Source of the DNA: Candidatus Omnitrophota bacterium
GTDB taxonomy: Bacteria; Omnitrophota; Gorgyraeia; Duberdicusellales; 4484-171
Reading direction: 5' to 3'
DNA: 13,584 nucleotides
Assembly (NCBI GenBank): GCA_021735045.1
Contig: JAIPHU010000020.1
Coordinates: forward strand, 1 to 13,584
Part shown: positions 2,868 through 11,161 of the stretch, in pieces
Position numbering within the stretch: position 1 is the first letter of the stretch
Layout of the letters: every line of letters begins with the position of its first letter
The notes under the pieces: generated by a model
Told to the model about the DNA's origin: nothing
The model's database searches: none
Seen by the model: only the letters and a program-made list of their open reading frames with translations
Program-made: the position numbers and the translations under genes

Positions 2868-2873
2868 AAGATA

Positions 2874-2901
2874 ATTTTAACATAATTACTGGTTCTCGCA
2901 A
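2874..2901 (-). promoter_or_regulatory. Promoter for yqeY, read on the - strand: -35 TTGCGA (2896-2901), 16-nt spacer, extended -10 TGtTAAAAT (2874-2882). The ATG begins 7 nt after the -10 hexamer, so the mRNA is probably leaderless.
   Basis: The reverse complement reads TTGCGAgaaccagtaattaTGtTAAAATtatcttATG. There is no SD. Confidence 0.45.
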
Positions 2902-2946
2902 GGGATTATTGGTTTAACTGATTTGCTTTTTTAGAGGAAAAAGATA

Positions 2947-2955
2947 TGGTATAAT
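2947..2955 (+). promoter_or_regulatory. Extended -10 promoter element TGgTATAAT upstream of the 1095-aa ORF.
   Basis: TG at 2947-2948 and TATAAT at 2950-2955. The predicted leader of about 27 nt before the ATG at 2989 has no SD. Confidence 0.4.
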
Positions 2956-2988
2956 TGTTAGGTAAATTATCGAATACAATAAATAATT

Positions 2989-5900
2989 ATGGTTATATTA
3001 ATAGCAGGATTAACTTTAGTTTCAATTATTTTGGTGGTCTATTCTTTGGCTGATTCCAGCCCAAAAGATCTACCAAAAAAACAAAAAAGGATGTCAAAAT
3101 CTTCACTTTATCAAAAAGTTAATTCTCTTGAAGATAAGGTAAAGAGTTTAAGAGAGCAGAGGCACCAGCTAAAGATAAATCAGGAAGACGGGAATAAATT
3201 AAGAAAAGAAAACAATGTTTTAAAGAAGGAAGTAGAGAAAGTTAAAGCGGAAAATGATGAATTTTACAAAAAAGTAGAAAGAAACCAAAAATGGCTTAAA
3301 AACCAAGAAGAAATGATTAAGAAAGAGCAACAACCTAAGGTAAATCTAGAAGAAAAAATAAAAGAAAAAGACAAAAGGCTAGAAGAGGAGTTTTCTAAAA
3401 ATGTAAAATTTGAGAAAAAGCTCCAACAACTTGAAAAGGAAAATCAAGAGCTACAAGGAAAAATACAGCATAACGACGAGCAGATAAAAGGACTTAGCTT
3501 AGATCTTGAGGCAGAAAGGAAAAAGCTAAAGGAAAAGGGTGAATTAGCTCAAGAGTATGCAAATCAAGTAACAAAAATGAAGGAGGAGCAGAAGCAAAGC
3601 GGATGGGTCTCAAAGCAAGAGCATTCAGAACTAAAAGAAAAATACAATGAGTTGGCCAAAAAAATAGAATTGAAAGAAAAAGAAATAAAAATTAAAGAGG
3701 AAAAGGTCATAGATCTGGATAAAGAAAGGATAAAGTTACTTCATCGATTGAGAGGAGAAGAAAGAGAGGAAGAAAAGAAGGATAATGGTTTAAAGTCAAA
3801 GGATAAAGGGGAAGGAGAAAAGCAACCGGAAGAAGAAGAAAAAACTCCAACCACGAAAATGCAGAAGGAACCTGAGAAGGAACAAGAAGGGGAAACTGAA
3901 GAGTCAAAAGAGGAGAAGGGAGAGAAATCCGAAGAAGATAGAGAGAAGCCAAAAGCAGAGATGGAGAAAAAGGATAAAGAGAATGAAGAGGAAGAAAAGA
4001 AAAAAAAGGTAGAAAAAGAAAAGGAAACTCTTGAGGAAGAGGAAAAAAGAGGAGAGGAGTCAAAAGAGGAGAAGGGAGAGAAATCCGAAATACGAAATGG
4101 GAAATCTAAAAAAGAAGAAGAAACAAAGAAAAAGTCAGATAAAAAAATAGCCAAACAAAAAAAAGAGGATGAGGAAAAGCCTGAGAGAAAGTACCAGTTA
4201 GAGAGCATCAGAAATATTGGAGTTATGGCCCATATTGATGCCGGTAAAACTACTCTTACCGAACGTATTCTTTTTTATACCGGGCGCTCTCATAAAATTG
4301 GCGAGGTCCATGACGGTAAAGCGGTAATGGACTGGATGAAACAAGAACAAGAAAGAGGTATAACTATAACTTCAGCGGCAACTACTTGTAGTTGGCTGGA
4401 TCACAGAATAAATATAATCGATACTCCTGGCCACGTTGATTTTACTGCTGAAGTTGAACGTTCTCTACGAGTTCTAGATGGCGCAGTCTCAGTTTTTTGT
4501 GCAGTAGGCGGGGTTGAGCCTCAAGCAGAAAAGGTTTGGCATTTTGCCGAGAAATTTAAAGTCCCTAAACTTGCTTTTGTAAATAAGATGGACAGAATGG
4601 GAGCTGATTTTTATGCTGTAGTCGAACAGATGAAAAAGCAATTGGGGGCAAAACCAATCTTAATGCAAGTTCCTATAGGTAAGGAAGATAATTTTAATGG
4701 GGTTATTGATTTAATTAAGATGAAAGCCTATTATTATCAAGATGAGCTAAAAAAAGATAATTTCCAAATAAAAGATATACCGGGCGATTTAGAAAAAGAG
4801 GCTAAACAAGGAAGAAAGCATTTATTAGAAGAGGTGGCTTCAGGCAGTAGTCAGCTTATGGATAAATACCTAAACTCTCCTGATTCGATAGACGAAACAG
4901 AGTTGAAAGAAGCTATTCGCGAAAGTACGATTGCCTGTAAGCTTGTACCGATTTTCTGTGGAACTGCTTTAAAGAACAGAGGAGTTCAACTATTGCTAGA
5001 TGGAGTAGTTGATTACCTGCCTTCTCCGGTTGATTTGCCGTCAGTGGAGGGAACTTTACCCGGTGATCAAGAAAAAGTAGTAAAGAGAAAAATATCTGAC
5101 AGTGAATCATTTTCGGCATTAGCTTTTAAAGTTCAGACTGATAAACATATTGGCAAGTTAGTTTATATTCGTGTTTATTCAGGGGTTTTAAAAAAAGGAA
5201 CTTATATCTATAATGTAACTAAAGACAAGAAAGAAAGGGTTTCCCGAATTTTACAGATGCACGCTAATCAAAGAGAAGCCCGCCAAGCTATATTTACTGG
5301 AGATATTGCTGCTGTGGTTGGCTTAAGTGATAGTTTAACCGGGGACACCCTAACTAATTTAGAAGACCCAATAGTTTTAGAGTCGATAGAATTTTCTGAG
5401 CCGGTAGTTTCAATAAGCGTTAAACCAAAAAGTCGTTCTGATCAAGATAAACTGTCAAAAGCTTTAGCAAAGCTTTCTAATGAAGACCCTACTTTTAAGG
5501 CTTTTACCAATCGAGAAACATCGGAAACTATTCTTTCTGGAATGGGAGAGCTTCATCTAGATATTATTGTTGGCCGGTTGAAAGAGGAGTTTGGAGTAGG
5601 GGTTGAGGTTGGTGAACCTAAGGTAGCCTATCGAGAAACTATTTCAGCTGAGACTAAACAAGAATATAAGCATGTTAAGCAATCGGGGGGCCGGGGCCAA
5701 TACGCTCATGTTGTTTTTAATCTTTCTCCTAATGAAAAAGGCAAAGGGTTTGATTTTACTAACAGCATTAAAGGTGGAGCGATCCCTTCTGGATTTATTC
5801 CAGCAGTAGAAAAAGGTATTATTGAAGCTATTGGTGAAGGTGTTTATGCAGGGTTTCCGGTAGTTGATGTTAAAGTAGATTTAGTTGATGGTTCTTTTCA

Positions 5901-6276
5901 TGAAGTAGATTCGTCAGAGATGGCTTTTAAAATTGCAGCTCGGCAATGTTTTAAACAGGCTTTTATGAATTGTAAGCCATCCTTGCTTGAGCCAATCATG
6001 GATTTAGAAGTAATTACCCCTGAGGATTATGTAAGTAATATTGTTAGCTATATATCTTCGAAACGAGGCAATGTTTTGGGGATTGAGCCAAAAGGTAAAC
6101 AAAAGATAGTTCAGTCTGAGGTGCCTTTATCGGAAATGTTTGGCTATGTTACTGATTTAAGATCGCTTACCAACGGCCGGGCCAATTGTTCGATGCAACT
6201 TAAAAAATACGCTGCAGTTCCTGAAAAAATTGCCAAGCAAGTTATTGAGGCAAAGAATCAAGAAAAAGAAGAATAG
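2989..6276 (+). CDS. Elongation factor G (full five-domain EF-G, aa ~402-1095) fused in frame to an N-terminal TM helix (aa 1-21), a coiled coil (aa ~36-262) and a K/E-rich disordered spacer (aa ~262-400).
   Basis: EF-G hallmarks are present: G1 [10 protein letters not shown]2 RGITI, G3 DTPGHVDF, G4 [16 protein letters not shown], the domain IV loop [18 protein letters not shown] and the C-terminal [19 protein letters not shown]. The N-terminus [21 protein letters not shown] is followed by KDLPKKQKR. There is no in-frame ATG, GTG or TTG between 3964 and the P-loop. Confidence 0.85.
3901..4089 (+). repeat. Perfect 33-nt in-frame direct repeat GAGTCAAAAGAGGAGAAGGGAGAGAAATCCGAA (3901-3933 and 4057-4089) inside the K/E-rich spacer. 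Each copy encodes [11 protein letters not shown].
   Basis: Identical strings read at both positions, offset by 156 nt (52 codons). Confidence 0.9.
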
Positions 6277-6292
6277 AAAATTCTATATATTG

Positions 6293-6301
6293 TGCTATAA
6301 T
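6293..6301 (+). promoter_or_regulatory. Extended -10 promoter TGcTATAAT. The ATG at 6310 lies 8 nt after the hexamer, so the mRNA is probably leaderless or nearly so.
   Basis: The sequence reads TGTGCTATAATataatattATG. There is no SD between the -10 and the start codon. Confidence 0.45.
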
Positions 6302-6309
6302 ATAATATT

Positions 6310-7530
6310 ATGGATAAGACCCGCAAGATTTTGATCATTTCTTCGGATCAAAAATTAAAAGAAGTCCTAAATTTTTGTTTTGATGGTTGGGGCTATGAAG
6401 TATATCTTCAAAAGCCATTAGAAAAAAAGTTAGAACATTATGATTTAGAAAAAATTAAAAGTGTTTCTCCTGATGTGATTGTAGTAGATGTTGAATCTGC
6501 GGGTAGCACACAGCTTGATATCTGTAAGCGTCTTAAAAATGATTTCCTCACAGCATTTGTACCTGTTATAACCCTTATTAATAAACGCCACTTACGTAGT
6601 CAACTTTTAGGTGTAAAGCAGGGGGTTGATGATTATTTAATTAAGCCTCCTGATCCGCTTGATCTTCGTATGCGGATTGAAATAGCTTTGCGCCGAGCCC
6701 GACATAGCATTAATGCTAATACTTTAACCGGCCTTCCCGGAGCAAGAATATTAGAAGATATAGTTAAGGAAAAGTTTCAAAAAAAGAAATATTTTTCTTT
6801 TTGTTATGTAGATATTGATAATTTTAAATCTTTTAATGATCTTTATGGTTATCAGAAAGGTGATAAGGTAATAGTCCAGACTGCTTATATGCTACAGCTT
6901 GCAGTAACTAAAACCGGCCAAACGGATGATTTTGTTTCTCATATTGGTGGTGATGATTTTGCCTTTGTTACGACTTTAGATAGATATGAAAAAATTTGTA
7001 ACTATTTTATCCAACTTTTTGATAATATAATTCCTTTCCATTATGCAAAAGAAGATAGAAAAAATGGTTTTGTAGTGACTCACAACCGTAGTCGTAAGAT
7101 ACAGGAAGTTCCTTTGATGAGTGTATCTTTAGCAGTTGTAAATAAAGGCCTAAATTCAACTGTTGAGAATATGATTCAACTTAATGAAAGAATATCAGAG
7201 GTTAAGAAGTTTTTAAAGAAAAAACCAAAAAGTTGTTATATGGCGGATCGAAGGGACACTAAAATATCTAACAATCAATCAATTCAGATAAATAAAAAAA
7301 GAAACATTGATAGTTACAAACCTTTAGGTCAAATTTTAATTGATAAAAATATAGTTTCCTCTGAGCAGTTAGATGAAGCATTAAATATTCATTGGAGAAA
7401 GGGGGTTTCTAGCGGTAAAGTCTTAAAAGAACTTGGTTTTGTTACCGAGGCCGAGTTAAAAGAGGCTTTGGATGAGCAAAAGATAAACTTTATTAATTTT
7501 ATTGAAAAAGATATGCAAAGAATGGGGTAG
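6310..7530 (+). CDS. Three-domain signalling protein: atypical receiver (REC), a divergent GGDEF-type cyclase domain with a GGDDF signature, and a C-terminal T2SSE_N/MshEN-like domain.
   Basis: REC: PDVIVVD(60)V, PVITL and DDYLIKP are present, but the N-terminal acidic pair is SS (ILIISSDQ). Cyclase: LTGLPG, YVDIDNFKSFNDLYGYQKGD, and HIGGDDFAFV at nt 6946-6960. C-terminus: PLGQILIDKNIVSSEQLDEALNIH, then WRKGV, then SSGKVLKELGFVTEAELKEALDEQ. Confidence 0.8.
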   Translation: MDKTRKILIISSDQKLKEVLNFCFDGWGYEVYLQKPLEKKLEHYDLEKIKSVSPDVIVVDVESAGSTQLDICKRLKNDFLTAFVPVITLINKRHLRSQLLGVKQGVDDYLIKPPDPLDLRMRIEIALRRARHSINANTLTGLPGARILEDIVKEKFQKKKYFSFCYVDIDNFKSFNDLYGYQKGDKVIVQTAYMLQLAVTKTGQTDDFVSHIGGDDFAFVTTLDRYEKICNYFIQLFDNIIPFHYAKEDRKNGFVVTHNRSRKIQEVPLMSVSLAVVNKGLNSTVENMIQLNERISEVKKFLKKKPKSCYMADRRDTKISNNQSIQINKKRNIDSYKPLGQILIDKNIVSSEQLDEALNIHWRKGVSSGKVLKELGFVTEAELKEALDEQKINFINFIEKDMQRMG

Positions 7531-8602: not shown

Positions 8603-8635
8603 GTCCTAAGTTCAATGTCTAAAGTCCTAAATCTA
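8601..8635. repeat. Five tandem heptads AAGTCCT AAGTTCA ATGTCTA AAGTCCT AAATCTA fill the whole MscS/M48 intergenic spacer. They belong to the same heptad family as window positions 1-12.
   Basis: Read directly. GTCTAAAGTCCTAA (8617-8630) matches TTCTAAAGTCCTAA (1-14) at 13 of 14 positions. Confidence 0.7.
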
Positions 8636-9882
8636 TGAATTTTTATTTAGCTATTATTTTAATTATACTTATTGGGGGTTATCTGCTAAATTTGTTAGTG
8701 GAGCTCCTAAACATTAAAGCCGCTAATCCTAAACTGCCTAATGAATTTATTGGTTATTATGATCAGGAAAAATACAAAGAGTCGCAAAAATACCTTTGTG
8801 AGAATAGTTGTTTTAATCTGATTCATTCCGGCTTGCTTACCGGTTTATTTGTTACTTTAATTTTAGCTGGTTTATTTAATTGGGTGGATCAGCTTGTAAG
8901 GAGTTTTGGGTTTTCTTCAATCCTTACAGGACTTTTATTTGTGTTCTTTATTTTTTTAGGCTTAGAGTTAATAAATTTGCCTTTTTCTATTTATCATATT
9001 TTTGTTTTAGAGCAAAAGTATGGATTTAATCGTACGTCTGTAAAAACTTTTATTTTAGATAAGATAAAAGGTTTAATGATTACAATTATTCTGGGAGCTT
9101 TAATCTTATCTTTTGTGTTTTGGTTTTTTGGTCAATTTCGAAGTTGGGGTTGGCTATTTTGCTGGATCGGATTAACTTTATTTGAGTTGTTTTTATTATT
9201 TATCTGGCCAAGATTTATTATGCCTTTATTTAATAAGTTCGAACCAATTAAAAAAGGTCAGCTGTGTGAAAAAATTCAAAGTTATGCTGATTCGCAAAAC
9301 TTTAAAATTCAAGGCATTTATAAGATGGATGCATCGAGGCGTTCAACAAAGTCAAATGCTTTTTTTGCTGGTTTTGGTAAGTTTAAAAGAATTGTTTTGT
9401 TTGATACTCTAATTGAAAATCATAGTTTAGATGAAATAGTGGCAATTTTAGCTCATGAGGTTGGACATTATAAGAAAAAACATGTTTTTCAGATAATTTT
9501 AATTTCTTTTATAACAAATGGATTTATGTTTTATATTCTTTCGTTGTTTATTACAGATCCGAATTTATTTAAAGCATTTAAAATGGAAAATATTTCAGTT
9601 TATGCCGGGTTATTTTTCTTTGGATTTTTATATGCTCCGATTAATTCTTTATTTTCAGTATTGGTTAATAAAATCTCACGTAAAAACGAAAAAGAAGCTG
9701 ATTATTTTGCAGTTAAGAGTTCTGGTTTAGGTAACCAGTTTATTAAGGCTCTAAAAAAGTTAGTTGTGAAAAATTTATCGAATCTTACTCCGCATCCAAT
9801 TAAGGTTTTACTTTTTTATAGCCATCCACCTATATTAGAAAGGATACGGTATATCCGTAAAGCTATAGATAATGGCAAATGA
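8635..9882 (+). CDS. M48-family zinc metalloprotease, Ste24/CAAX-prenyl-protease-like, polytopic membrane protein.
   Basis: HExxH motif as LAHEVGHYKKKH. It has multiple N-terminal TM helices, and its length (415 aa) and layout are typical of Ste24-like M48 enzymes with the M48 N-terminal domain. Confidence 0.85.
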   Translation: MNFYLAIILIILIGGYLLNLLVELLNIKAANPKLPNEFIGYYDQEKYKESQKYLCENSCFNLIHSGLLTGLFVTLILAGLFNWVDQLVRSFGFSSILTGLLFVFFIFLGLELINLPFSIYHIFVLEQKYGFNRTSVKTFILDKIKGLMITIILGALILSFVFWFFGQFRSWGWLFCWIGLTLFELFLLFIWPRFIMPLFNKFEPIKKGQLCEKIQSYADSQNFKIQGIYKMDASRRSTKSNAFFAGFGKFKRIVLFDTLIENHSLDEIVAILAHEVGHYKKKHVFQIILISFITNGFMFYILSLFITDPNLFKAFKMENISVYAGLFFFGFLYAPINSLFSVLVNKISRKNEKEADYFAVKSSGLGNQFIKALKKLVVKNLSNLTPHPIKVLLFYSHPPILERIRYIRKAIDNGK

Positions 9883-9991: not shown

Positions 9992-11161
9992 ATGAAAAGA
10001 TACATTGTACATGTAGATATGGATGCTTTTTTTGCTGCTGTAGAGCAGAGAGATAATCCTAGCTTGGTTAATAAACCAGTGATAATCGGAGCTGACCCTA
10101 AAGGCGGGAAGGGGAGGGGAGTAGTATCAACTGCTTCATACCAGGCCCGAAAATTTGGTATAGGATCAGCTATGCCAATATCAGAAGCCTACAAAAGATG
10201 CCCGCAGGGTGTTTATCTTAGACCCAATATGGATAAATACGGTGAGGCGTCAAAAAAAGTTTATGATCTTTTATATCAGTTTAGTCCTTTTATTGAACCT
10301 ATAGGTATTGATGAAGCTTTTCTAGATATAACTGGTAGTTTTCATATTTTTGGTGATCCGGTTCAAACTTGTCTTTTGTTGAAAGAGAAAGTAAAAGAGG
10401 AGATTGGTTTAACTGCTTCAGTTGGCCTTGCTCCGATTAAAATGGCTGCAAAGATTGCTTCTGATTTAAATAAACCAGATGGTTTTTGCCAAGTAGCACA
10501 AGATAAAATTTTAGATTTTCTTTGGCCTTTAAGTGTTAGCAAATTGTGGGGGGTAGGTAAAAAGACAAAAAGGGTTTTAGGCAGTATGGGAATTAGTAAG
10601 ATTGGCCAACTAGCTAATTTTGATCAAGGTATTTTAAGAGAATATTTCGGGAAAAACGGCCGGCATCTTTGGCAGCTTGCTAATGGTATTGACCGGCGTA
10701 AAGTTGTGCAGCCAGAACCGACAAAATCTATTGGAAGTGAATTTACTTTTCCAAAAGATACCTCTAGCTCTGATCAAATCGAAGTTATTTTGAGTAAATT
10801 GTCTGAAGAAGTGTCAAGCCGGCTTAAAAAAAATGGGCTTCGAGCCAAAATTATTTGTATAAAGATTAGATTGGAAAATTTTTCAACTCATAATAGGTCA
10901 ATGCGTTTAATTAAAGCAACTAATTTTTACGGCACAATTTTTACAGCTGTTAAGAAACTTTATTATGATTCAGAATTTTTAGGTGAAAATATAAGATTGA
11001 TTGGGATAAAATCAGAAAAATTTATTGATTCTTATATACAGGATACAATTTTTGACGAATCTTGCCAGGAAAAAAAAGAAAAGACAGATTCAGCGGTTGA
11101 GAAAATTCGAAAAAGGTTTGGCCAGGAAACTATTTGGAGAGGGGGGAGCTTACAGTTGTAG
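9992..11161 (+). CDS. dinB: DNA polymerase IV (Y-family translesion polymerase).
   Basis: The N-terminus IVHVDMDAFFAAVEQRDNPSLVNKPVIIG, then VVSTASYQARKFGI, IDEAFLDITG and LAPIKMAAKIASDLNKPDG are canonical DinB motifs. Confidence 0.92.
   Translation: MKRYIVHVDMDAFFAAVEQRDNPSLVNKPVIIGADPKGGKGRGVVSTASYQARKFGIGSAMPISEAYKRCPQGVYLRPNMDKYGEASKKVYDLLYQFSPFIEPIGIDEAFLDITGSFHIFGDPVQTCLLLKEKVKEEIGLTASVGLAPIKMAAKIASDLNKPDGFCQVAQDKILDFLWPLSVSKLWGVGKKTKRVLGSMGISKIGQLANFDQGILREYFGKNGRHLWQLANGIDRRKVVQPEPTKSIGSEFTFPKDTSSSDQIEVILSKLSEEVSSRLKKNGLRAKIICIKIRLENFSTHNRSMRLIKATNFYGTIFTAVKKLYYDSEFLGENIRLIGIKSEKFIDSYIQDTIFDESCQEKKEKTDSAVEKIRKRFGQETIWRGGSLQL

Follow-up and report, generated by a model that had tools for sequence, protein, structure and literature searches.

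Why would a bacterium encode an elongation factor with about 400 additional residues in front of its first domain? The question is raised by a 13,584-nt stretch of DNA from Candidatus Omnitrophota bacterium (contig JAIPHU010000020.1 of assembly GCA_021735045.1), referred to below as the window, in which a gene of the forward strand encodes an elongation factor G (EF-G) of 1095 amino acids (aa). Bacterial EF-G is a soluble protein of ~700 aa, typically encoded in the rpsL-rpsG-fusA-tuf (str) operon. The window protein is considered a variant of EF-G because it is 1095 aa long and carries an N-terminal transmembrane (TM) helix, a coiled coil and a linker, instead of being a soluble protein of ~700 aa. 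The analysis points to an EF-G body of canonical type joined to a complete membrane-anchor protein, to the conservation of this long form in Omnitrophota beside a soluble EF-G, and to a probable role of the tethered factor close to the membrane.

The gene is an ATG-initiated open reading frame (ORF) with an in-frame stop at position 2980, 9 nt upstream of the start codon. An earlier note on this DNA, made from the letters alone, had described a single 1095-codon frame with a full-length EF-G and its hallmarks in the last ~695 aa; the frame was verified, and profile-based domain annotation and motifs agreed with the assignment. Its statements on the sequence all held when checked, one detail, the deviant helix motif discussed below, being misleading. 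The gene and its EF-G part extend as follows:

2989..6276, + strand: whole gene of the 1095-aa long-form EF-G, stop included (ORF list, homologues of 1000-1100 aa)
4186..6273, + strand: five-domain EF-G body, aa 400-1095 (Pfam, TIGR00484, PDB matches, superposition)
4204-5025, 5110-5358, 5392-5613, 5617-5973 and 5983-6240, + strand: subdomains G, II, III, IV and V of the body, respectively

On the protein, the Pfam matches covered aa 406-679 (GTP_EFTU), 708-790 (domain II), 802-875 (domain III), 877-995 (domain IV) and 999-1084 (domain V), and all five EF-G Pfam domains (GTP_EFTU, EF-G_D2/GTP_EFTU_D2, EFG_III, EFG_IV and EFG_C) exceeded their gathering scores. The NCBIfam equivalog TIGR00484 scored 1043.5 bits against a cut-off of 659.4, with positions 3-690 of 691 in the model aligned. 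Models of other types remained below their cut-offs: the EF-G2-type models NF009377 and NF058620 (503.7 against 890 and 505.3 against 1000), the Tet(M)/Tet(O)-type protection model NF012153 (402.5 against 775), the LepA model TIGR01393 (189 bits against 534) and the models of RF3 and BipA. The P-loop AHxDxGKT, the DTPGH motif with the catalytic His, NKMD and the loop tips of domain IV are all present, and the GTPase motifs and domain-IV tips are invariant across 45 long forms. The nearest relatives in the PDB were the EF-Gs of T. thermophilus, E. coli and S. aureus, with ~820-850 bits (847 for T. thermophilus). The body in the AlphaFold2 (AF2) model, with a predicted local distance difference test score (pLDDT) of 80-93, superposed on EF-G crystal structures with a TM-score of up to 0.93. 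The ratio of nonsynonymous to synonymous changes (dN/dS) in the body was 0.076 between the window and locus L005, its closest genome relative. Sequence and modelled fold both place the body within canonical EF-G. With the canonical factor (FusA, TIGR00484; structures 1dar/1efg and 2xex), it shares the five-domain body, the GTPase motifs and both domain-IV tips; the window protein differs in the ~400 added N-terminal residues, in its predicted attachment to the membrane and in its location outside the str operon, the latter being likewise true of the soluble Omnitrophota EF-G in the loci examined.

The residues in front of the body were divided into the following segments:

2989..3666, + strand: anchor module, aa 1-226, with full-length homology to a stand-alone family of ~225-aa TM/coiled-coil proteins
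2992..3051, + strand: transmembrane helix, aa 2-21, predicted N-out/C-in signal anchor (hydropathy, AF2, charge statistics)
3052..3102, + strand: juxtamembrane K/R-rich disordered segment, aa 22-38, with KDLPKKQKR; positive-inside determinant, pLDDT <50
3103..3771, + strand: coiled-coil stalk, aa 39-261 (heptad z=13, AF2 pLDDT >90)
3289..3312, + strand: first conserved Trp motif KWLKNQEE, aa 101-108, with W102 invariant (alignments)
3367..3405, + strand: conserved motif K127...EEF135-S-K137-N-V139 (alignments of 28 and 45 sequences)
3595..3654, + strand: second conserved Trp motif, aa 203-222, with W206 at least 90% conserved, at the helix kink
3772..4185, + strand: disordered, net-acidic K/E-rich spacer, aa 262-399 (composition, pLDDT, family comparison)

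The first 21 aa carry no charge and are directly followed by KDLPKKQKR. In two AF2 runs, performed with 28 and 45 homologues, a helix was modelled at aa 2-21 or 2-20 and disorder at aa 22-38, and the maximal 19-residue Kyte-Doolittle mean amounted to 2.0-3.4 in most homologues. In 132 long forms, the hydrophobic stretch begins at residue ~1 (a median of 0 residues before it) and comprises 21-33 uncharged residues with a median of 24, whereas Lys and Arg together number on average 0.02 ahead of the helix and 5.0 within the 15 residues directly behind it. Because of this charge bias, the positive-inside rule predicts an N-out/C-in orientation with the bulk of the protein in the cytoplasm. The features expected of a bitopic signal anchor (hydropathy, charge bias and AF2 helix) are concordant for the window protein, the topology being a predicted one. 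The same orientation had been read earlier from the uncharged hydrophobic first 21 aa and the basic cluster behind them, and hydropathy and charge in the 132 homologues bear it out.

Heptad periodicity at aa 36-260 (power at period 3.5) was phase-coherent with z=13, a value reached by none of 2000 shuffles. In the AF2 models, the stalk consists of a helix at aa 39/40-203, a kink at aa 204-208 and a second helix at aa 209-261/262. K127, K137 and V139 are invariant in the alignment of 28 sequences, with F135 conserved in at least 90% of them; in the alignment of 45 sequences W102 and V139 are invariant, and K127, F135, K137 and W206 reach at least 90%. The consensus motifs of the stalk read WV.K.EE, EKEL..EFSKNV and SEWVSK.EY..L. 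The distance from the end of the TM helix to the second conserved Trp has a median of 175 residues in the 132 long forms and a 5-95% range of 165-185. A PDB profile search with aa 1-262 returned only generic coiled coils (GCN4, myosin, tropomyosin, BST2 and Lpp), a Foldseek search with the AF2 model of the anchor gave no structural match, and Pfam and NCBIfam, searched with the full protein and with stand-alone relatives of the anchor, gave only EF-G domains or sub-threshold generic coiled coils.

The spacer lacks a heptad signal (z=-0.2) and its AF2 pLDDT is 25-37; 70% of aa 261-400 are K, R, D or E and 5% are hydrophobic. Across the 132 long forms, this linker is 35-150 residues long (median 77) and difficult to align; it contains abundant E, P and K, and its net charge is negative without exception, with a mean of -0.15 per residue. 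The linker of the window protein, with ~138 aa, is among the longest of the family. The order of a coiled coil followed by a spacer, given in the earlier note, is upheld by the heptad statistics, both AF2 models, purifying selection and wide conservation. Two of its terms had to be narrowed: the description as K/E-rich fits the window lineage, whereas the family as a whole is E/P/K-rich and always net acidic, and the 'long flexible stalk' comprises a coiled coil of conserved length and, behind it, a variable linker. An exact in-frame direct repeat was found in the linker by a script and had been missed by the repeat finder:

3901..3933, + strand: 33-nt in-frame direct repeat, copy 1
4057..4089, + strand: 33-nt in-frame direct repeat, copy 2, located 52 codons downstream of copy 1

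The repeated unit, GAGTCAAAAGAGGAGAAGGGAGAGAAATCCGAA, corresponds to 11 codons, and this duplication suggests that the linker grew by slippage or duplication, recently. The repeat at 3901-3933/4057-4089 is also the one place where read mapping could alter the length of the ORF.

The architecture is not peculiar to the window. Among the best 120 matches of a protein search against a collection of 5.8 billion proteins, ~100 share the plan of TM helix, K/R cluster, coiled coil, spacer and EF-G with a length of 1000-1100 aa, and the start with a helix and a K/R cluster persists down to body identities of 48-65%. An uninterrupted ORF of this kind is carried by ~36 species-representative Omnitrophota genome loci and is present in more than 100 independent assemblies (NCBI, JGI, ENA and Logan), including the closed chromosomes CP070807.1 and CP070797.1; homologous EF-G bodies from independent assemblies are 48-86% identical. 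Conservation of the TM, coiled-coil and EF-G fusion in related genomes had been put forward in the earlier note as a check and was observed in these loci and matches, and the division into two genes, which it had named as grounds for abandoning the fusion, was seen in none of the homologue loci examined. In comparison with L005, synonymous sites of the coiled coil have reached saturation (pS 0.81), yet its protein sequence is still 72% identical; the dN/dS of the linker is ~0.16. The N-terminal extension is under purifying selection and, we conclude, translated.

The origin of the extension was traced with a profile of aa 1-262. An HMMER search of 1.84 billion cluster representatives with this profile yielded 651 proteins at E<=1e-3, of which 248 remained at E<=1e-10. 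Among the 150 matches listed, 46 were EF-G fusions or N-terminal fragments thereof and ~56 were short proteins with a median of 225 aa, some of which may be truncated fragments; the stand-alone genes that were checked are complete within their contigs. The short proteins end ~25-40 residues past the second Trp motif. A profile-profile comparison of the extension with the stand-alone family by hhalign gave a probability of 100%, an E-value of 2.1e-38 and 216 aligned columns, with aa 1-226 of the query matched to positions 1-217 of 231 in the template, i.e. to the whole stand-alone protein. Common to both are the TM helix, the K/R cluster, both Trp motifs, an EFSKNV-like motif and WVSKxEY..L. 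The Trp of this last motif, which is the second one and lies near the C-terminus, is invariant in the stand-alone family and constitutes its hallmark. Since aa 1-226 are homologous to stand-alone proteins, the gene corresponds to a complete anchor protein followed by an extra helix, a linker and EF-G. The window protein departs from the stand-alone members (~210-235 aa) precisely in continuing into these parts; the stand-alone Omnitrophota anchors end ~25 residues past the second Trp motif and carry no cargo. By these alignments, the long EF-G arose by fusion of a complete TM/coiled-coil protein to the N-terminus of EF-G, and the window protein, as a product of that fusion, is atypical of the anchor family. 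Neither Pfam nor NCBIfam holds a model for this family, the only named members are entered as 'hypothetical protein [Candidatus Omnitrophota bacterium]', and an unannotated family with 248 cluster representatives at E<=1e-10 merits a family model.

Stand-alone anchor genes are located at 10429-11025 in L001, 8039-8695 in L045, 3945-4616 in L082 and at 7001-76xx in L084-L090. They directly adjoin phosphorelay genes, with a PAS-HisKA-HATPase-PilZ gene overlapping the stop codon or an Hpt/hybrid kinase gene just upstream. Within a few kb lie genes for a SpoU/RlmB-like rRNA methyltransferase, an S4-pseudouridine synthase (RluB-like), YchF or an ABC-F protein. In four longer proteins of 529-724 aa (P0205, P0214, P0215 and P0262), the N-terminus fits the anchor profile (TM helix and coiled coil). 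The C-termini of these anchor-like proteins carry MshEN, or MshEN together with PilZ in P0214 and P0262, these being receptor domains for cyclic di-GMP (c-di-GMP); P0215 was left out of the domain scan. The MshEN/PilZ proteins, along with the gene for a response regulator with a GGDEF domain (RR-GGDEF) that follows the window EF-G, hint that the anchor module may be associated with c-di-GMP.

The long form is a paralogue that occurs beside a soluble EF-G in Omnitrophota. A plain short EF-G of ~698 aa was found in this phylum in at least 120 clusters. A long and a short copy are encoded on one contig in L047, three genes apart and both passing TIGR00484 (1098 and 1038 bits), and in L091, two genes apart; both are also present on the closed chromosome CP070797.1 (L092), in which the long copy is a 1051-aa ORF at 13692-16847. 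When the long gene of L003 was compared with the short gene of L017, the identity at third codon positions was 0.80-0.90 in the initial ~200 codons of the body (~10013-10600 in each) and ~0.5 in the remainder of the gene; between-genome controls gave 0.54-0.66. This tract in the G domain is the product of gene conversion between the long and the short copy of one metagenome-assembled genome (MAG), a relative of the window lineage; it shows that a single genome harbours both genes and that one G domain can replace the other.

The consensus sequences of long and short bodies are distinguished by one column only, K against Q near aa ~1041 in domain V, with no obvious functional meaning. The long-form consensus SETVWRQSDKY is identical to that of the short forms, and the deviant helix motif of the window protein is specific to its subclade. 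In a neighbour-joining tree of the bodies, the short forms make up one clade inside the long forms, a topology which we distrust because the paralogues undergo demonstrable gene conversion. Genes for S12, S7, EF-Tu and S10 were absent within +/-10 kb of all 57 Omnitrophota EF-G loci, long or short, and the str-operon argument for paralogy was rejected on this ground. An order of S12-S7-EF-G-EF-Tu has been reported in several complete Omnitrophota chromosomes, partly in hypervariable or mobile regions (bioRxiv 10.64898/2026.06.07.730766). The suggestion of the earlier note that the gene is a paralogue is thus retained, on the strength of co-residence (L047, L091 and CP070797.1) and gene conversion, but both of its original reasons fail: short forms equally lack str neighbours, and the deviant helix motif is confined to the window subclade while the long consensus equals the short one.

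The contigs of L003 and L017 (JAIWAR010000004.1 and JAIWAR010000002.1) carry Omnitrophota-type genes at ~5x coverage each, and the bin was submitted under the name 'Methanosarcinales archaeon'; for several further Omnitrophota-like loci the label is 'uncultured Planctomycetia'. Such labels could reflect mis-binning, mislabelling or an epibiont co-binned with its methanogen host. In L040, a third, divergent EF-G-like gene (18571-20505, 644 aa, P-loop GHAQSGKTT) lies 8 kb downstream of the long EF-G; it scored 650.5 bits with TIGR00484 against a cut-off of 659.4 and 622 bits with NF009891 against 597.

Ribosome-dependent GTPase activity, translocation and recycling together with ribosome recycling factor (RRF) would be expected of the long form from its intact motifs, purifying selection and gene conversion with the soluble copy. 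The reading that we favour, with some reserve, is that the long form would be a catalytically normal EF-G tethered near the inner face of the membrane and active there. The uncharged N-terminal helix would insert as a signal anchor, leaving the N-terminus outside and the remainder in the cytoplasm. The coiled coil, whose geometry and oligomeric state we infer, would project from the membrane, its two helices extending up to ~24 + 8 nm at 0.15 nm per residue. The linker would add flexible reach, with a contour length of up to ~50 nm here and ~28 nm at the family median, and, being always acidic, it would be repelled by membrane and rRNA and hence be kept extended. Omnitrophota cells are ~0.2-0.3 um across, and in cells of this size the leash would confine EF-G to a peripheral shell without immobilising it. 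The PDB relatives of the body include chimeras with L9 at the N-terminus of EF-G bound to 70S ribosomes (e.g. 4wpo); N-terminal fusions to EF-G are presumably sterically compatible with ribosome binding.

The tethered factor would perform ordinary GTP-dependent translocation and RRF-assisted recycling on ribosomes near the membrane, most plausibly those engaged in co-translational insertion or secretion, and the soluble ~698-aa EF-G, encoded elsewhere or next door, would serve bulk translation. As the bodies are interchangeable, the paralogues would divide labour by place and not by chemistry, and gene conversion would hold the leashed and the soluble EF-G functionally identical. A broader proposal, which is possible but decidedly tentative, is that Omnitrophota partition elongation in space, with the leashed EF-G, held on a rod of fixed length, serving translocon ribosomes on giant proteins, its soluble twin serving the cytosol, and the leash being a reusable module specific to the phylum. 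According to a preprint (bioRxiv 10.64898/2026.06.07.730766), TM helices or signal peptides are present in 94% of the long proteins of Omnitrophota, which reach 147,155 aa. The synthesis of giant proteins would occupy translocon-bound ribosomes for a very long time, and provision of EF-G to membrane-associated ribosomes would be the most parsimonious purpose of the tether. As the anchor is found alone, fused to MshEN-PilZ and beside phosphorelay genes, localisation of the factor might also be regulated.

The order of genes in the window is anti-sigma factor, UppP, two small ORFs, YqeY (on the minus strand), EF-G, RR-GGDEF, MscS, M48 protease and DinB, and this synteny recurs in L003 and L005. 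The M48 gene (8635-9882) encodes a membrane metalloprotease of the Ste24/HtpX-like type with Peptidase_M48_N and Peptidase_M48 domains. An M48 gene is located 1-8 kb from the long EF-G also in L003, L005, L047 (8485-9723), L049, L055 and L091 (1889-3127), in subclades that are otherwise non-syntenic, and in L047 it sits between the long and the short EF-G. The largest long-form subclade has L20, PheS, PheT and a RarA-like gene as neighbours and no M48. A cassette of short EF-G, a SpoU-family methyltransferase, a peptidoglycan-binding protein and long EF-G was found at 10001-16940 in L091 and 10001-16847 in L092; in L091 it is adjoined by genes for ribosomal protein S21, a 141-aa protein with an RF-1 domain (ArfB-like) and an RRM protein. 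In front of the RR-GGDEF gene of the window (6310-7530), a TG-extended TATAAT ends at 6301, 8 nt before the ATG, and no Shine-Dalgarno sequence precedes the start; a leaderless or near-leaderless mRNA is therefore suggested. The match to the GGDEF domain covers positions 5-89 of 161 in the profile, and the cyclase domain may be truncated or degenerate.

Several observations weigh against a tethered, locally active EF-G. A soluble copy in the MAG of the window was not found, none of the 20 NCBI short forms checked coming from GCA_021735365.1. The recurrent M48 and the c-di-GMP/phosphorelay neighbours hint at a regulation that a simple leash ignores. The conserved Trp motifs of the stalk imply a specific partner or fold which a tether leaves unexplained. 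The S-L-A at the end of the helix in the window protein bears a superficial resemblance to a signal-peptidase site, although S-L-A is not conserved in the homologues. Finally, the link of the long EF-G to co-translational secretion and giant proteins is circumstantial.

One alternative is a regulated reservoir, in which EF-G would be held at the membrane in an inactive or restricted state and freed by cleavage in the linker, e.g. by the nearby M48 protease, upon a signal, for which envelope stress, c-di-GMP and contact with a host are candidates. A linker that is long and, by the AF2 model, disordered would be accessible to proteases, the M48 protein possesses a five-helix N-terminal domain and is encoded 1-8 kb away in seven loci of distant subclades, and RR-GGDEF directly follows EF-G in the window clade. 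A precedent is provided by EF4/LepA, for which storage at the membrane and release upon stress have been reported. However, M48 is near only ~7 of ~40 long-form loci and is absent from the largest subclade, the poorly aligning linker shows no conserved cleavage motif, and a releasable store seems redundant because a soluble EF-G is already present in the same genomes. A reservoir is accordingly judged unlikely, if the least so among the alternatives to a tethered working factor.

An improbable alternative is that the long form has a mainly structural and not a catalytic role and that its EF-G body acts as a ribosome-binding module, a docking handle by which the coiled-coil anchor, perhaps in a lattice with the stand-alone anchors, holds or concentrates ribosomes at the membrane, comparable to the eukaryotic receptors p180/RRBP1 and kinectin. 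The stand-alone TM/coiled-coil relatives could co-assemble with the long form, the invariant Trp and EFSKNV motifs suggest specific contacts between helices or with a partner, the stalk is conserved in length like a spacer rod, and the stand-alone genes lie within a few kb of genes for SpoU/RlmB-like, RluB-like, YchF and ABC-F proteins. A passive handle would nevertheless have no need of a body that is constrained like a working EF-G, retains all catalytic motifs and exchanges its G domain with the soluble copy. Moreover, binding of EF-G to the ribosome is transient and coupled to GTP hydrolysis, so EF-G would make a poor static tether.

It is very unlikely that the start of the gene was mis-called and that the product is a soluble EF-G of 771 aa with a short charged tail, preceded by an untranslated frame. 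The start site in question and a putative promoter of the long gene are located as follows:

3961..3963, + strand: Met325, start of the deposited 771-aa annotation, judged a false N-terminus on conservation evidence
2947..2955, + strand: extended -10-like motif TGGTATAAT, putative promoter, 34 nt upstream of the ATG (consensus match only)

The deposited NCBI annotation (contig JAIPHE010000018.1, MAG GCA_021735365.1) indeed begins at Met325, no Shine-Dalgarno sequence precedes the ATG at 2989, and NCBI/PGAP gives 797 aa for the long EF-G of CP070797.1. Several findings speak for the longer product. More than 130 sequences show conservation, at the level of the protein, of the TM helix, the K/R cluster, the motifs and the length of the stalk, the upstream frame retains its protein identity over saturated synonymous sites and is homologous to independently encoded stand-alone proteins, and Met325 is not conserved. 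In homologues, annotation has placed the start at one internal Met or another without a consistent position (products of 731-926 aa in other MAGs), a Met near the start of the EF-G body occurs in only 16 of 132 long forms, and JGI and other gene callers predict 1000-1100 aa. A Shine-Dalgarno-like motif is likewise lacking at 9 of 15 window gene starts checked. A start-codon scan confirmed the earlier statement that no initiation codon lies between nt 3964 and the G domain: no in-frame ATG, GTG or TTG was found between Met325 (nt 3961) and Met413 (nt 4225, GVMAHID, in beta-strand 1 of the G domain). The promoter scan passed over TGGTATAAT because no -35 hexamer matches; the extended -10 promoter assigned to the gene in the earlier note therefore holds as a match to the consensus and lacks a -35 element.

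As annotation pipelines trim the gene to an internal Met (771 and 797 aa), the anchor is invisible in public records. In the deposited record, ~1.1 kb upstream of Met325 is labelled 'intergenic' (window 2868-3960), and further stretches mislabelled in this way lie at 5741-6835 in L083 and 13451-14454 in L092. No record of the exact 1095-aa protein was found.

Hardly credible is an exported or moonlighting EF-G, in which the helix would be a cleavable signal peptide (S-L-A before D) and the coiled coil and EF-G would be periplasmic or surface-exposed. The S-L-A after the helix offers a possible site for signal peptidase I, and surface-exposed EF-G has been reported in some pathogens. Against this, the long forms have no positive n-region, their hydrophobic stretch exceeds the usual length of a signal peptide, the K/R cluster behind it opposes translocation of the C-terminal side, conservation of S-L-A is lacking in the homologues, and the catalytic motifs are strongly selected while a GTPase would have no substrate outside the cytoplasm. 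An assembly or sequencing artefact, i.e. a frameshift, chimeric join or collapsed repeat joining an upstream gene to fusA, is suggested by the low-complexity spacer with its exact 33-nt repeat and by the MAG origin of the contig and has a practically negligible probability, the same unsplit ORF being present in more than 100 independent assemblies with two closed chromosomes among them. As the architecture is conserved in many assemblies and under purifying selection, it can as such be explained neither by a frameshift or chimera nor by a mis-called start.

A tethered working EF-G can be set beside other systems. Second EF-Gs in one genome are likewise found in EF-G2 of Thermus and Bacteroidota, spdEFG1/2 of spirochaetes (including Borrelia), planctomycetes and delta-proteobacteria, and mtEF-G1/mtEF-G2, which set a precedent for a division of labour between duplicated EF-Gs, e.g. 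between translocation and recycling. Those paralogues are soluble with a diverged catalytic body, whereas the Omnitrophota pair have bodies of near-identical consensus, undergo gene conversion and differ only by the anchor. The tether follows the same design principle as in the bitopic proteins ZipA, RNase Y and FtsY: an anchor at residue ~1, a tether that is charged, flexible or coiled-coil, and a globular domain that acts in the cytoplasm close to the membrane. No relationship to them in sequence or fold emerged from the PDB profile and Foldseek searches, and the cargo here is a core elongation factor. RNase Y has a TM helix and a coiled coil, ZipA a TM helix with a charged and a P/Q linker, and in FtsY, a GTPase linked to translation, an acidic N-terminal region directs the protein to the membrane. 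EF4/LepA is a ribosome-dependent GTPase of the EF-G superfamily for which membrane association has been reported; it is peripheral, belongs to a different family and possesses neither a TM helix nor domain IV. In p180/RRBP1 and kinectin, an N-terminal TM helix and a very long cytoplasmic coiled coil bring the translation machinery to the membrane, but these proteins are eukaryotic, unrelated in sequence to the window protein and without a GTPase cargo.

No description of a TM-anchored EF-G was found in the literature within open-access coverage, which is an absence of evidence, and the earlier statement that no characterised EF-G has this architecture agrees with that result. The sole preprint with matching words applies 'membrane-anchored' to giant proteins. 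The TM-anchored EF-G and the unannotated anchor family, the latter so far seen only in Omnitrophota, are apparently new; the ordinary EF-G body is known.

EF-G is highly conserved, much studied and treated as a freely diffusing cytoplasmic factor. If the reading of the long form as a tethered, active factor is true, a phylum-wide integral-membrane EF-G would be a natural bacterial example of elongation or recycling confined in space. It would make testable whether membrane-bound translation needs its own supply of factors and how far a tethered factor reaches, as well as how the few ribosomes are arranged in ultra-small cells that secrete giant proteins.

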